Assembly (NCBI GenBank): GCA_023703535.1
Contig: CP097967.1
Location: 92,543 to 156,542, forward strand
DNA: 64,000 nt
Direction: 5' to 3'
Source: SAR86 cluster bacterium
GTDB taxonomy: Bacteria > Pseudomonadota > Gammaproteobacteria > Magnimaribacterales > TMED112
In this document: one piece after another, positions 21,393 through 42,073 of the stretch
Layout of the letters: each line of letters opens with the position of its first letter
Numbering within the stretch: position 1 is the stretch's first letter
Made by a program: the position numbers and the translations under genes
Notes under the pieces: model-generated
Seen by the model: only the letters and a program-made list of their open reading frames with translations
Database searches by the model: none
What the model was told of the DNA's origin: nothing

Positions 21393-22913
<1,521 letters not shown>

Positions 22914-23033
22914 CGGAAGGGCGCCCACAAGGGTGACTAAATTTTCAGACGATCATAAGATCTATAAAAGAACAATTTGCGAAACTGCAATAAAATTATT
23001 TCAAAGAACAAAGAGTTAACTTTGAGGTTACTT

Positions 23034-25745
<2,712 letters not shown>

Positions 25746-25788
25746 AACCTCAAAGTAAATTCTTTTATTAAGTTTCGCAAATCACGGT

Positions 25789-25898
25789 TGCCCGATAACA
25801 ATAGCTCACTGGAACCACCTAATCCATCTCGAACTTAGAAGTGAAACGGTGTAGCGCCAATGGTAGTGCGTAAGTGCGAGAGTAGGTATTATCGGGCT
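25789..25898 (+). rRNA. rrf: 5S rRNA
   Basis: Terminal helix GCCCGATA/TATCGGGC, CCGAAC-like CTCGAAC, AGTGAAAC, GCGAGAGTAGG. Confidence 0.93.
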
Positions 25899-36411: not shown

Positions 36412-37728
36412 ATGAAATACAGACTTTCAATTATTCTTTTTTTTCTAACATGCTCTTTATGGGCAGATGATTTAAGGAATGAAATGTCTGCATCATTAAA
36501 ATCTTTAATGCCTAAAGTAATTGAGTGGAGACATGATATTCATGAGTTTCCAGAACTATCAAACAGAGAATTTAGGACTTCAAAAAAAGTTGCAGATCAT
36601 TTAGAGAGTTTGGGAATTGAGATAGAGACAGGAATAGCATATACAGGTGTTGTTGGAATAATTAAAGGAGGAAAACCTGGACCAACAGTTGCACTTAGAG
36701 CTGACATGGATGCCTTACCTGTAGAGGAAAAGACTGGACTTCCCTATGCATCAAAAGTAAGAACAACTTATCTTGGAAACGATGTAGGTGTCATGCATGC
36801 ATGTGGTCATGATGCACATGTTGCAATTTTGATGGGGGCTGCAGAGTTTTTAGCAAAACATAAAGAGCAACTTGAAGGCAATATCATGCTTATCTTTCAA
36901 CCTGCTGAAGAAGGTCCACCTGAAGACGAAGGAGGTGGAGCTAAGATGATGCTTGAAGAGGGAATATTTGAAAGATATCAGCCTGAAGCAATTTTTGGCT
37001 TACATGTAACTAATATGCCTAATGGACTAATTGCTGTAAAGCCTGGACCAGCAATGGCAGCAGCATCTGCTTATAGAATTTCAATCAAAGGCAAACAAGC
37101 TCATGGCTCTGCTCCATGGGCGGGAATTGACCCAATAATGGCAACTGCAGAATTAATTCAGTCTTTAAATACAGTTGTAAGTCGAAGAATAAATATTATT
37201 AATAATCCTGCGGTTATTTCAGTTGGCATAGTCGAGGCAGGCACAAGAAATAATATTATTCCAGAAGATGCCATGATAATGGGAACCATTAGAACTTTTG
37301 ATCCAGAATTAAGAAGTGAAATCTACAGTGAAATTGAACAACTTGCAGAAGGTGTTGCAGTTGGAACTGGTACAACAATAAATGTCGAATTTGATGTAGG
37401 TGGCTTCTTTCCAGTTACTTATAATCAAGAAGATCTAGTCAAGAAATATTCATCAACTCTAAAAGAAGCTTCTAACGGAAAATTCATGATTTCTGATGTT
37501 CCGACTACAGGCGCAGAAGATTTTTCATATTTTTCCCAAGAAATACCTGGCATGTACTTTTATTTAGGTGTAAACAGACCAGGCAAGGGAGAGGCATCTG
37601 GCGAATTCAACAGAAGGTCTGATGTTGCAGGAAATCATTCACCTTATTTCATTGTTGATGATGAAGCATTAGACGAAGGCGTTAGAGCAATGAGTTTTCT
37701 TGCAATTGATTACCTTAAGAATAATTAA
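36412..37728 (+). CDS. Exported M20-family amidohydrolase/peptidase
   Basis: Signal peptide (SLWA), RADMDALP, MHACGHD, QPAEEG, HVT, AEDF, NHSP. Confidence 0.92.
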   Translation: MKYRLSIILFFLTCSLWADDLRNEMSASLKSLMPKVIEWRHDIHEFPELSNREFRTSKKVADHLESLGIEIETGIAYTGVVGIIKGGKPGPTVALRADMDALPVEEKTGLPYASKVRTTYLGNDVGVMHACGHDAHVAILMGAAEFLAKHKEQLEGNIMLIFQPAEEGPPEDEGGGAKMMLEEGIFERYQPEAIFGLHVTNMPNGLIAVKPGPAMAAASAYRISIKGKQAHGSAPWAGIDPIMATAELIQSLNTVVSRRINIINNPAVISVGIVEAGTRNNIIPEDAMIMGTIRTFDPELRSEIYSEIEQLAEGVAVGTGTTINVEFDVGGFFPVTYNQEDLVKKYSSTLKEASNGKFMISDVPTTGAEDFSYFSQEIPGMYFYLGVNRPGKGEASGEFNRRSDVAGNHSPYFIVDDEALDEGVRAMSFLAIDYLKNN

Positions 37729-38681: not shown

Positions 38682-40127
38682 ATGAGAGCCATTCTTTTTT
38701 TACTTTTAACCTCTTATGTATTTGCAGAGAGTAATTTTGATTTTTCAAAAAAATTTTCGGGCACTTTCAATGGGAAAAAGCTGGAATACACTGCAAAAGT
38801 TTATGAAAAAGTAATTTTTGAACGAGATGACTCAACAAAACCTTTAGCTTCTTTTGTCGTCACTGAATACAGTGTTGATAATCAAAAAAATAGACCAGTC
38901 ATGTTTAGTTTTAATGGAGGTCCTGGATCTGCATCATTGTGGTTGCATATGGGAGTTTTAGGTCCAAAAGTGGTGAAAGTTCCAAGCGACGCAGGTGATG
39001 ATGGTTCTCCTCCATATAATTTAACAAACAACAAATTATCGCCCTTAGATAAAGCTGATTTAGTTTTCATTGATCCAATTGGGACTGGCTATAGCAGACC
39101 ATTGGGTGAACATGAAGGAAAAGAATTTTGGGGAGTAAAACAAGATGCCGTAGTAATAGCAGAGTTTATTCGAAGATGGATTAACGACAATAAAAGATGG
39201 AATTCTCCAAGATATATTTTAGGTGAGAGTTATGGTGGAATAAGAGGACCATTATTGGTATCAGAGTTGAGAAGTGGCGTTTTAACAAACATCGAAGTCA
39301 ACGGCCTTCTCTTAGTTTCACCTGCTGCTGATATGCAATATATAAGATTTGCTCCAGGAAACAATTCCCCACATTATGGCTATCTTCCAACTTATGCAGT
39401 AACTGCCTATTATCATGGAAAGGTAGATACAGATTTGACTTTGCTCGAATTTTACGAAAACTCAAAAAAATTTAGTCTAGAAAAATATGGTCCAGCTTTA
39501 TTAAAAGGTACAAGAATTTCTCAAGAAGAATACGACGAAATAGTTAAAGAATATTCTTTTTATACTGGTTTAAGTGAAGAGTTTGTTAGGAATTCAGATT
39601 TAAGAGTTGAAGCGTCTGATTTTAGAAAAGAGTTATTACGTGATGAGGGTTTTTCTGTTGGAAGAGCAGACTCAAGATACAAAATGAAAGATTATGTAGC
39701 TGCTGGTCAGTATCCTGATACGGATGCTTCAATGGAGGGTTTCTCTTCTGCATATGTATCTGCATTACATACATGGTTTTCTGAGATTGGTGTTGAAACT
39801 GTGATGCTGTACCAGAGTAGTGATAGAGATTTATATAATAACTGGGATTGGAACTCCACCCAAGATCAAAAATGGCCTAGATATGTAAACCCAACACCAC
39901 ATATTGGTTATGCTCAACGTGGAAATGAAGAATTTAAAGTTTACGTTTCTTGTGGAATTTATGATTTAGCTACACCTTGTTTTACTGCTGAAAATTTTCT
40001 TTATGACAATGGGGTCGATATGGAAAGAGTTATTTTTTCTGAATTTGAAGCAGGACATATGATGTACAATCATCAACCTTCATTTGATCGTTTTTTAAAG
40101 GAAGTAAATAATTTCTTAAAAGAATAA
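38682..40127 (+). CDS. Exported S10-family serine carboxypeptidase
   Basis: Signal peptide (YVFA), FNGGPGSAS, IDPIGTGYS, GESYGG (catalytic Ser), YDLATP, AGHMMY. Confidence 0.92.
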   Translation: MRAILFLLLTSYVFAESNFDFSKKFSGTFNGKKLEYTAKVYEKVIFERDDSTKPLASFVVTEYSVDNQKNRPVMFSFNGGPGSASLWLHMGVLGPKVVKVPSDAGDDGSPPYNLTNNKLSPLDKADLVFIDPIGTGYSRPLGEHEGKEFWGVKQDAVVIAEFIRRWINDNKRWNSPRYILGESYGGIRGPLLVSELRSGVLTNIEVNGLLLVSPAADMQYIRFAPGNNSPHYGYLPTYAVTAYYHGKVDTDLTLLEFYENSKKFSLEKYGPALLKGTRISQEEYDEIVKEYSFYTGLSEEFVRNSDLRVEASDFRKELLRDEGFSVGRADSRYKMKDYVAAGQYPDTDASMEGFSSAYVSALHTWFSEIGVETVMLYQSSDRDLYNNWDWNSTQDQKWPRYVNPTPHIGYAQRGNEEFKVYVSCGIYDLATPCFTAENFLYDNGVDMERVIFSEFEAGHMMYNHQPSFDRFLKEVNNFLKE

Positions 40128-40193: not shown

Positions 40194-40937
40194 ATGAATA
40201 TTCAAAAGTTTTTTATTGGACTACTTGTAGTCACATTCTCGTTATCAATATTTGCAGATCATCACAAAGGTGATGGTATGAAAGACAAAGGAGCTAAAAA
40301 AGGGATGATTGCCAAGAAAATGGTTGAATCAGGTTATAAAGGTAAAGATCCATTTCTAAAGATGGTGAAAAAACATATGGCAGATGATGGATATCAATAC
40401 CCAAGTCGTTTTGTTGGTTTTGGATTCTATTATGACCCAAATGGAGACCAGCCTGATGTTGTAATTTCAACTGTTGAGGGAAGCTCAGCATCAGAGGCAA
40501 TGAAAGTTGGAGACGAAGTATTGTCAATTAATGGAGTTAAAGACTGGAGAAATACTGATCCAGAGGCAACAAAAGTTGGTGATGTATGGAATGTGAAAGT
40601 CAAAAGGGACGGCAAAGAAGTAGACCTTGAAATGGCAAGAACAGTCGTGCAGCCAAGAACTGATAAGGCCACTTTTGTGGAAAATATTGAAGGAGCTGAT
40701 GCAGAACAATGGGGATCAAGCTTGATCGAATACAGAATGATTGATGTTGCTGTAGGTAAAGAAGTAGCTTATGTACTTCATTGGAGAAAAGATTTAGATG
40801 AGGAGTCTGGAGTAGAAGCAGAAACCTATATTGTTACAAGAGTTGGATTTGATGAAAGTGGCAAAGTTAATTTTATTGGTGCTCTTTCAGAGGATGAACT
40901 TTTGTTAAGGCAGACTGGTTGGTCTATAACTAGATAA
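40194..40937 (+). CDS. Exported PDZ-domain protein (paralog 1)
   Basis: Signal peptide ending IFA-DHH, RFVGFGF, GSSA...VGDEVLSING PDZ pattern. Confidence 0.8.
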   Translation: MNIQKFFIGLLVVTFSLSIFADHHKGDGMKDKGAKKGMIAKKMVESGYKGKDPFLKMVKKHMADDGYQYPSRFVGFGFYYDPNGDQPDVVISTVEGSSASEAMKVGDEVLSINGVKDWRNTDPEATKVGDVWNVKVKRDGKEVDLEMARTVVQPRTDKATFVENIEGADAEQWGSSLIEYRMIDVAVGKEVAYVLHWRKDLDEESGVEAETYIVTRVGFDESGKVNFIGALSEDELLLRQTGWSITR

Positions 40938-40951
40938 TAAAATTCATTTCT

Positions 40952-40984
40952 TAAGGCGCTATTTTTATGGCGCCTTTTTTTCTT
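40952..40984 (+). terminator. Intrinsic terminator between the PDZ paralogs
   Basis: AAGGCGC...GCGCCTT stem followed by a T-run. Confidence 0.75.
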
Positions 40985-41017
40985 TTAAAAAAAATCATTT
41001 TGTTTTATGGTTTTAGG

Positions 41018-41767
41018 ATGGATATTAAAAAAATTATTGTTGGACTCTCAGTAGTCCTAATTTCGTTATCAATTTTTGCAGACCACCACAGAGGTGGAAT
41101 GAAGTCTATGGCAGCTGTAGCTGAAAGCTGGGTAAAAGCACAATATACCAGTAAAGAAAAAACATTAGCTATGGTTAAAAATCATATGGCTGAAGATGGA
41201 GTAAGTTTTTCTGGCAGATTTGTAGGTTTCGGTTTTAACTGGGATCCGCAAAATGAAGAAGGAATGATTGTTACAAGAGTAATTCCTGGTTCACCTTCAG
41301 AAGGAGTTTTAGAGGTAGGAGATAAATTTGTTTCTGTTAAAGGTGTAAAGGTTACTGAAGATAATATTAATACAGGGAAGCTTAGCTTTTCTGGATTACC
41401 TGGTGAGCCCGTTGATGCTGTTGTTATGAGAAATAATAAAAGGGTAAAAGTATCTGTAACTAGAGGAATTGTAAATCCAACTTGGTCCAAAGCTCAGGTA
41501 TTGGAAAATATTGAATCTGCAGATGCAGAGGAATGGGCAAGTAATTTAGTTGATTACCAAATTGGAGATGTAGTAGTAGATAGAGGAAAAAATATTGCAT
41601 ATGTCTGGCATTGGTCAAAATCTAAAGATGAAGTTTCTGGAAAGGAAGCAGAATCACATAACTTCACTAGAATGCGATTCAATGAAAATGGTATGGTACA
41701 AGGCTATTGGAGCTTATCTGAAGAAGAGCTAGTTTTAAGGCAAACTGGCTGGACAATTACTAGATAA
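41018..41767 (+). CDS. Exported PDZ-domain protein (paralog 2)
   Basis: Likely start ATG 41018; signal peptide ending IFA-DHH, RFVGFGF, PGSPS..VLEVGDKFVSVKG; same C-terminus LRQTGWxITR as paralog 1. Confidence 0.8.
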   Translation: MDIKKIIVGLSVVLISLSIFADHHRGGMKSMAAVAESWVKAQYTSKEKTLAMVKNHMAEDGVSFSGRFVGFGFNWDPQNEEGMIVTRVIPGSPSEGVLEVGDKFVSVKGVKVTEDNINTGKLSFSGLPGEPVDAVVMRNNKRVKVSVTRGIVNPTWSKAQVLENIESADAEEWASNLVDYQIGDVVVDRGKNIAYVWHWSKSKDEVSGKEAESHNFTRMRFNENGMVQGYWSLSEEELVLRQTGWTITR

Positions 41768-41996
41768 TTATGTAATATAAAAAATGTAGAAATAAGGATT
41801 GGAAACAAAACTTAGATCTGCAAAAAAGACACCAAGAAATTGGTGTCTTTTTTTTTGTGATGGCTTTAATTTTTTTTATAAATGTATAGACAATTATTAG
41901 AAGATTATGTAATATAGAAAATGTAGAAATAAGGTTTGGAAACAAAACTTAGATCTGCAAAAAAGACACCAAGAAATTGGTGTCTTTTTTTTTGTG
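41767..41996. repeat. 93-bp direct repeat x2 (41767-41859, 41904-41996), each holding a bidirectional terminator hairpin
   Basis: 91/93 identical; A6-GACACC-8 nt-GGTGTC-T9 hairpins at 41822-41856 and 41959-41993. Confidence 0.92.
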
Positions 41997-41997
41997 T

Positions 41998-42073
41998 TGG
42001 AGCCACCTGTCAGAGTCGAACTGACGACCTACTGATTACAAATCAGTTGCTCTACCAGCTGAGCTAAGGTGGC
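41998..42073 (-). tRNA. tRNA-Thr(TGT)
   Basis: 76 nt, GCCACCT/AGGTGGC acceptor stem, ACTGA-TTTGTAA-TCAGT anticodon arm, encoded CCA. Confidence 0.97.

Follow-up and report, generated by a model that had tools for sequence, protein, structure and literature searches.

In a 64,000-nucleotide stretch of DNA from a SAR86 cluster gammaproteobacterium (contig CP097967.1, positions 92,543 to 156,542; low GC, approximately 32-35%), referred to here as the window, two open reading frames (ORFs) lie in tandem on the forward strand and encode related proteins with predicted leaders, ORF1 and ORF2, in which a PDZ domain is very probably inserted into the beta-1/alpha-3 loop of a SnoaL-like NTF2 cone. The two proteins align from end to end with 46% identity (BLASTP E 1e-70), and the alignment holds the motifs HMA(D/E)DG, RFVGFGF, VGD..(L/V)S(I/V).G, ENIE.ADAE.W and LSE(D/E)EL.LRQTGW.ITR, all of which had been quoted as shared in the initial annotation; its description of the pair as tandem exported paralogs agrees with the common strand, the level of identity and the leaders. 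Both are real genes, as indicated by strong purifying selection, with dN/dS values against close relatives of 0.02-0.14 for ORF1 and 0.04-0.14 for ORF2, and by their occurrence on public contigs, the exact ORF1 protein being present on 359 of these, where its sole name is 'hypothetical protein'. In a mechanical list of ORFs the start of ORF2 was placed at position 40967; since this ATG sits within the terminator hairpin of ORF1 (hairpin proper at 40953-40976, followed by a T run), and since both public gene calls and a 522-member public cluster use position 41018, which yields 249 amino acids (aa), the latter is taken as the true start. The coordinates of these and other features are collected in Table 1.

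The central part of each protein corresponds to a PDZ domain whose carboxylate-binding loop is intact, as had been proposed, and the boundaries suggested at that time coincide with the stretches matched by Pfam PDZ models. ORF2 passes the PDZ_2 model (PF13180) narrowly, with 27.6 bits versus a cut-off of 27.0, and ORF1 lies below the cut-offs of both PDZ_2 (21.8 bits versus 27) and PDZ (PF00595; 22.4 versus 23.2), its block giving weak matches to Pfam PDZ, PDZ_2 and PDZ_6. At the level of the family the signal is clearer: PDZ_2 is matched by all 22 of the 22 aligned members (best E 1.1e-8), and the family profile recognizes the PDZ domains of RseP and DegP in the PDB at E 4e-11, as well as those of Ctp proteins. 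Furthermore, an AlphaFold2 (AF2) model of ORF1 places the strands and helices of the PDZ fold, a beta-sandwich with two helices, within residues 72-152, and Foldseek searches with this model identify the middle part as the PDZ of DegQ, HtrA, DegS, RseP and CtpA. The sequence R-x-x-G-F-G-F is the textbook PDZ carboxylate loop, and both ORF1 and ORF2 conform to the more general pattern R/K-x-x-x-G-hydrophobic-G-hydrophobic; in addition, R72, G75, F76, G77, F78, D107 and R138 are invariant among 73 non-redundant family members, the set on which all conservation counts are based (ORF1 residue numbering).

The presence of a PDZ domain of this kind evokes the question of an associated protease. Scans of Pfam and NCBIfam detected no protease domain in either ORF, in agreement with the initial annotation. 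The S41 model PF03572 is unmatched, and the NCBIfam models for CtpA, Prc and Tsp match the PDZ stretch only, with 12-19 bits versus cut-offs of 218-700; the trypsin-like domain of HtrA/DegP is likewise absent, the PDZ stretch alone being matched with 13-16 bits versus cut-offs of 400-750. A protease function, and with it membership of the S41 or HtrA family, was rejected on these grounds. The label 'CtpA-type', which had been attached to the PDZ, was also abandoned, RseP, DegP/DegQ, Tsp/CtpA and even PSD-95 PDZ domains scoring about equally. Judged by its sequence matches, the insert is a generic bacterial protease-associated PDZ domain (PF13180).

Several lines of evidence indicate that the segments flanking the PDZ together form one SnoaL/NTF2-like cone, in which three helices pack on a curved antiparallel sheet, a prediction which is well supported and which had also been made in the initial annotation. 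The AF2 model, calculated for ORF1 (the divergent copy, and the sole copy modelled) from an alignment of 128 rows, has a pLDDT of 89.2 and a pTM of 0.79, with pLDDT values of 94-98 across both domain junctions; a model generated from the two paralogs only, with a pLDDT of 44, was discarded. Foldseek comparison with the PDB identified ketosteroid isomerases (6uae, 4l7k, 8cho), KstA15 (8r20), AclR (2gey) and the SnoaL-like 3hk4, with target-normalised TM scores of 0.53-0.70, or 0.62-0.70 excluding AclR. Since these NTF2-type alignments take up 197-227 columns, against target lengths of 117-157 residues, they bridge the insert and make use of both flanks.

A second line of evidence comes from a group of cytoplasmic relatives, P0070 and more than 100 similar leaderless database proteins of approximately 224 aa, which carry Pfam SnoaL, SnoaL_2 and PDZ_2 matches and are automatically named ester cyclase, SnoaL-like aldol condensation enzyme or ketosteroid isomerase-like. 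A word-indexed homolog search with ORF1 alone retrieved its own cluster only; an exhaustive HMMER search yielded approximately 25 full-length representatives, including P0070, matched in a single stretch over residues 18-217. When the PDZ columns were removed before comparison, the exported and cytoplasmic profiles could be aligned by hhalign with a probability of 91% (E 1e-6) over 127 colinear columns. The PDZ-deleted cytoplasmic profile, in turn, matches the 'predicted ester cyclase' of PDB entry 8ysb in one stretch (positions 5-126, E 1.9e-11), and also matches IdmH, SnoL, AclR and KstA15. The SnoaL_2 model matches 6 of 15 PDZ-deleted exported members, with a best E of 1.5e-4 and neither window protein among them, and 7 of 22 full-length family members.

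In a scan of one genome per species, for which a close set of 13 sequences served as query, 103 related stretches were detected, of which 80 were kept. The exported family is found mostly in SAR86, followed by Halieaceae (Luminiphilus, Halioglobus, Congregibacter), SAR92-like bacteria, Woeseia and Wenzhouxiangella, and a few loci stem from Flavobacteriaceae/Bacteroidetes, Balneolales and Marinimicrobia. Beyond the PDZ core, residues G66, K158, W173, R216, G223, E233, Q240, G242 and R247 are invariant, and the proteins end in [ILV]-[ST]-Arg in 71 of the 73 members, the terminal Arg being invariant. No Pfam or NCBIfam family that spans the whole of ORF1 or ORF2 was matched.

The two copies in the window are not equivalent. 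Within the 80 genome loci, ORF2 is the nearer of the two copies for most homologs; of the fetched loci, L007 and L008 (52-53% identical) are the only ones with a better match to ORF1. ORF1 carries substitutions (W43M, P98S, L103M, F109V and G150T) at sites with 93-96% conservation in the rest of the family, and its PDZ has suffered a 5-residue deletion around helix alpha-B, where the L.FRGKPGE motif (96% conserved) has been lost; in the model this helix comprises approximately 3 residues, and the local pLDDT falls to 81. ORF2 retains the family-wide motifs, including L.F.G.PGE. The tandem arrangement was seen only in this species (L002, L005, L006), where the single-cell genome AG-907-K13 (L005) displays the same gene order with 95-100% protein identity. 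Taken together, the proximity of the homologs, the departures of ORF1 and the restriction of the pair to one species identify ORF2, by its sequence, as the canonical copy and ORF1 as a divergent, lineage-specific copy on which purifying selection still acts, and whose PDZ specificity has probably been altered.

Both window proteins start with a typical signal peptide, that of ORF2 being MDIKKIIVGLSVVLISLSIFA; cleavage sites were assigned by reading the sequence and not by computation. Relatives possess either the same type of leader or, in approximately 27 of the 73 members, a lipobox with Cys, which suggests that export is a family-wide trait. Directly after the predicted cleavage site, ORF1 and ORF2 both display Asp-His-His, and 39 of the 46 non-lipoprotein members have a small residue followed by X-X-His at this point, in variants that include DHH, MHH, GHH, AHH, GGH, DGH, AAH, DDH and others. 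In some relatives the segment is extended by further His residues, as in AAHEKDDHGHYHG, and Glu, Asp or His often follow; in the ORF1 model it is disordered. Cu(II)/Ni(II) sites of the ATCUN type have X-X-His at the N-terminus, and this putative ATCUN-like N-terminus could bind either metal.

Table 1. Features of the ORF1-ORF2 locus, in window coordinates.
Feature	Position	Strand	Description or basis
Exported M20 amidohydrolase/carboxypeptidase	36412..37728	+	PF01546, PF07687
Exported serine carboxypeptidase, Peptidase_S10	38682..40127	+	PF00450, E 6.8e-17; GESYGG motif; 67 bp before ORF1
ORF1	40194..40937	+	247 aa; exported PDZ-in-SnoaL protein, divergent copy
ORF1 predicted signal peptide, residues 1-21	40194..40256	+	MNIQKFFIGLLVVTFSLSIFA; basic n-region, hydrophobic core, small residue at -1
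Asp-His-His (X-X-His, ATCUN-like) at predicted mature ORF1 N-terminus	40257..40265	+	Sequence pattern
ORF1 N-terminal cone part, predicted	40272..40400	+	Helices 27-49 and 51-61, strand 62-69; AF2, Foldseek, hhalign from residue 33
ORF1 PDZ, residues 72-152	40407..40649	+	Carboxylate loop R72-F-V-G-F-G-F; Pfam, PDB profiles, Foldseek
ORF1 C-terminal cone part, predicted	40650..40913	+	Helix 158-167, strands 177-187, 191-201, 208-219 and 225-231, helix 234-240; AF2, Foldseek, hhalign
ORF1 C-terminal tail T-G-W-S-I-T-R and stop	40914..40937	+	Family ending pattern
Strong intrinsic-terminator-like hairpin with T run, ORF1-ORF2 spacer	40953..40986	+	Stem of 10 bp with 5 G-C pairs, then TTTTTCTTTT
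ORF2	41018..41767	+	249 aa; exported PDZ-in-SnoaL protein, canonical copy
Asp-His-His directly after predicted ORF2 cleavage site	41081-41089	+	Sequence pattern
ORF2 PDZ, residues 67-152 (about 67-153)	41216..41473	+	Loop R67-F-V-G-F-G-F; Pfam PDZ_2 at 78-147; ORF1 alignment
ORF2 C-terminal tail T-G-W-T-I-T-R and stop	41744..41767	+	Alignment
Terminator-like hairpin 3' of ORF2	41822..41863	+	Part of a 121-nt direct repeat

The genes at this locus follow in the order M20 (+), class-I glutamine amidotransferase (-), S10 (+), ORF1, terminator, ORF2 and terminator, after which come a tRNA gene (-), msrA (-), two tRNA genes (+) and tuf. The proximity of exported peptidases is not peculiar to this species. 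Among the 77 loci with an upstream neighbour, which represent 35 distinct upstream contexts, a peptidase or amidase lies directly upstream in 26 loci and in 7 of the distinct contexts. These comprise divergently oriented S45 penicillin amidases (11 loci), M20 enzymes (6 loci, all in SAR86, 73-75% identical to the M20 protein of the window) and Amidohydro_3 proteins (3 loci), as well as same-strand S9 peptidases (3 loci: L007, L008 and L025, the latter a Flavobacteriaceae MAG, or metagenome-assembled genome), M14/AstE-like proteins (2 loci) and the S10 carboxypeptidase (1 locus, in this species). Most of them carry leaders or lipoboxes, the M14-like one being devoid of either, and no peptidase was found among the annotated downstream neighbours across loci. 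Peptidases and amidases make up a few percent of bacterial genes, and against this general-knowledge background, for loci that are phylogenetically clustered, the upstream position looks enriched in them.

Other neighbours recur as well. Two further exported families of approximately 240 aa, with no Pfam match, adjoin the family gene in several loci from SAR86 and Bacteroidetes (L007-L013, L021, L068, L016, L020, L057, L069 and L022), in most cases with the orientation of that gene, one of them being present on both sides of the PDZ-in-SnoaL gene in L009-L013; both are absent from the 64-kb window. In a number of gammaproteobacterial loci (L052-L054, L063, L067, L072, L075, L076 and L081) a PF10118 'predicted metal-dependent hydrolase' is encoded directly upstream in divergent orientation, with an indoleamine 2,3-dioxygenase gene downstream in four of these. 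Gene contexts of three relatives at a greater distance, the cytoplasmic P0168 and P0247 and the exported, P0041-type P0155, display no shared theme. Within the window, the region 3' of ORF2 contains a 121-nt direct repeat (41743-41863 and 41880-42000; 92% identical, spacing 137), whose first copy comprises the last approximately 5 codons of ORF2 and its terminator hairpin, and whose second copy is a degenerate remnant with the same hairpin that ends exactly at a tRNA gene (42001-42073, minus strand); the arrangement resembles what a local tandem duplication would leave behind. Positions 21393-25897 hold a complete rRNA operon (16S, 23S, 5S), with a 16S-23S spacer of approximately 120 nt in which no tRNA was detected.

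As the most likely role, we tentatively suggest that the exported family consists of non-proteolytic modules that bind peptide C-termini and work alongside periplasmic exopeptidases and amidases in the scavenging of peptides. The conserved R-x-x-G-F-G-F loop implies that the PDZ probably still grips a free C-terminal carboxylate, and by analogy it would bind free peptide C-termini in the periplasm through beta-strand addition. The cone could accommodate the remaining, upstream portion of the ligand or serve as a docking site for a partner, and the protein as a whole might capture substrates, hand them over, or regulate the neighbouring exopeptidases and acylases. The protein's own [ILV]-[ST]-Arg terminus may occupy the PDZ groove, either its own or that of a neighbour, until displaced. 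A more elaborate version would place these proteins of abundant marine heterotrophs in a new class of periplasmic sensors or adaptors for peptide C-termini, in which a PDZ held shut by the tail opens upon binding and controls either the cone pocket or the S10, S9, M20 and S45 enzymes, with Cu(II) at the X-X-His terminus as a second input; this we consider speculative and rather unlikely. Considered as a single proposition, the architecture and the functional reading together are about evenly balanced between being right and being wrong.

A number of observations weigh against this reading, in both its structural and its functional parts. Neither ORF1 nor ORF2 matches the Pfam SnoaL models (PF07366, PF12680), whether the PDZ is kept or removed, and the PDZ-deleted exported profile matches nothing in the PDB by sequence; because these direct matches are missing, the NTF2 assignment is carried by the predicted structure and by one transitive profile-profile link, and approximately 100 of the 128 rows of the modelling alignment are cytoplasmic relatives. 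The missing matches, and the low quality of the two-sequence model, could be taken to mean that the assignment is an artefact of the modelling alignment and that the flanks surround an ordinary PDZ with some other, perhaps novel, fold. Such an artefact is highly improbable: the poor model gave the same order of helices and strands, the PDZ-deleted hhalign alignment is colinear over both halves, SnoaL_2 does recognize a fraction of the PDZ-deleted exported members, and P0070, to which the HMMER match runs in full length, passes Pfam SnoaL. With the cone accepted, the proteins might instead be enzymes or small-molecule binders of the cyclase, isomerase or hydrolase-like type (SnoaL, ketosteroid isomerase, LEH), the PDZ serving as a peptide-opened lid or gate as in CtpB and Prc. 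This possibility, which had been put forward in the initial annotation and remains doubtful, gains from the fact that SnoaL-type ester cyclases are by sequence the nearest to the cone, that PDZ domains inserted in S41 and M50 proteases are established gates, that the beta-1/alpha-3 loop is generally located near the open end of NTF2 cones, and that the cone has invariant polar residues (K158, R216, E233, Q240). The polar residues that are invariant in the cytoplasmic 'ester cyclase + PDZ' relatives are, however, mostly lost from the exported family, whose own invariants are the four just named and W173 (a comparison that depends on the alignment); equivalents of R216, E233 and Q240 are common in SnoaL-like proteins and may be structural, and no recurrent biosynthetic or small-molecule catabolic genes lie nearby.

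The functional part of the proposal, peptide capture in partnership with exopeptidases, is affected by the facts that the peptidase association is phylogenetically clustered, mostly in SAR86, that the upstream peptidases are often divergent rather than operonic and are absent in approximately two-thirds of the loci, and that ORF1 and ORF2 may not be co-transcribed, since ORF1 is followed by its own terminator. What is said here of ligand binding, oligomeric state and catalysis is drawn from sequence and model. The C-terminal tail poses a further difficulty: it is unusual for PDZ ligands to end in Arg, and the tail of the ORF1 model is a coil and not an added strand. The same tail is central to an alternative in which the proteins are structural and self-assembling, the [ILV]-[ST]-Arg of one subunit binding the PDZ of the next, head to tail, while the cone dimerises, with no external ligand. 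In favor of this scheme, 71 of 73 members have a C-terminus of constant length and sequence, and R72, invariant in the exported family, is mostly Pro in the cytoplasmic relatives, whose C-terminus is different and longer, so that carboxylate loop and tail change together between the subfamilies. Against it, besides the atypical Arg, stand the undocked tail of the monomer model and the recurrent peptidase neighbours, which the scheme leaves unexplained; we regard self-assembly as unlikely. Finally, the high frequency of X-X-His directly after the leader, often followed by more His, Glu or Asp, and the disorder of this segment in the model, would be compatible with a periplasmic binder or buffer of Cu(II)/Ni(II), for which the PDZ-NTF2 body would act as a carrier or docking module. 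As a core function this is quite improbable: the motif is missing from the approximately 27 lipoproteins and from 7 more members while the PDZ and cone invariants are universal, which points to an accessory role; moreover, it depends on a cleavage site that was read from the sequence, and no copper-homeostasis genes are found nearby.

The initial annotation had also described a new domain architecture. In this form the claim goes too far, since more than 100 SnoaL+PDZ_2 proteins are already recorded in databases through automatic annotation; what stands is that the architecture is uncharacterised and has no curated family, that neither Foldseek nor profile searches found a PDB chain covering both SnoaL/NTF2 and PDZ (best query-normalised TM 0.38), and that no paper was found on the combination of SnoaL/NTF2 and PDZ, and none relevant on SAR86 and PDZ or on 8YSB. 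If the reading proposed here is correct, the use of PDZ insertion as a regulatory device would extend beyond the S41 and M50 envelope proteases to a small fold of the NTF2 type that serves for ligand binding or as an enzyme, and an abundant, conserved periplasmic family would be defined in SAR86, OM60/NOR5, SAR92 and related marine bacterioplankton. Its pairing with exported carboxypeptidases, aminoacylases and acylases would then point to an unnoticed component of the processing of peptides and dissolved organic nitrogen in the surface ocean. PDZ-in-SnoaL proteins would also offer a concrete and inexpensive target for structural and binding studies.

Within the range of known systems, the closest relatives of the window proteins are the cytoplasmic SnoaL+PDZ 'ester cyclases', represented by P0070 and by NCBI MFC2077818.1 of Candidatus Bipolaricaulota, which share the architecture and the insertion point, align colinearly in full length, and have in common the PDZ core residues G75, G77, P98, A99, G106, D107, R138 and R149. 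They differ by the lack of a signal peptide, by their length of approximately 224 aa, by passing the SnoaL Pfam models, and, subject to the alignment, by other cone invariants, by a Pro at the position of R72, ahead of the G-x-G loop, and by a longer C-terminus of the form P-x-x-V-K-x; they are themselves uncharacterised, with uninformative gene contexts. The SnoaL/NTF2 enzymes (8ysb, IdmH 6hnl, SnoL 2gex, AclR 2gey, KstA15 8r20 and ketosteroid isomerase 8cho) share the alpha+beta cone and the order of its elements, as well as a C-terminal ...Q-x-G motif and an Arg in the penultimate strand; in contrast to the window proteins, they are single-domain, cytoplasmic proteins of approximately 125-150 aa with no PDZ, and the window proteins reach no SnoaL model by sequence; a counterpart of Asp121, a catalytic residue of the nogalamycin cyclase SnoaL (1SJW), may not be conserved in the exported family. 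The S41 proteases CtpA, CtpB and Prc/Tsp, and the M50 protease RseP, likewise contain a bacterial PDZ inserted within a domain of an envelope protein, with comparable PDZ similarity, and in S41 proteases and RseP the PDZ recognizes free C-termini and acts as a gate or filter for access; their host domain, however, is a protease, and neither an S41 nor an M50 domain is present in the window proteins, nor is a region corresponding to a Ser-Lys dyad. A further parallel, from general knowledge, is offered by the PH-PDZ supramodule of alpha-Syntrophin, which is eukaryotic and cytoplasmic, has another host fold and bears no sequence relation to the window proteins, and in which, as in these, a PDZ is located in a loop of a small ligand-binding domain, the two halves of the split PH domain re-forming one fold.

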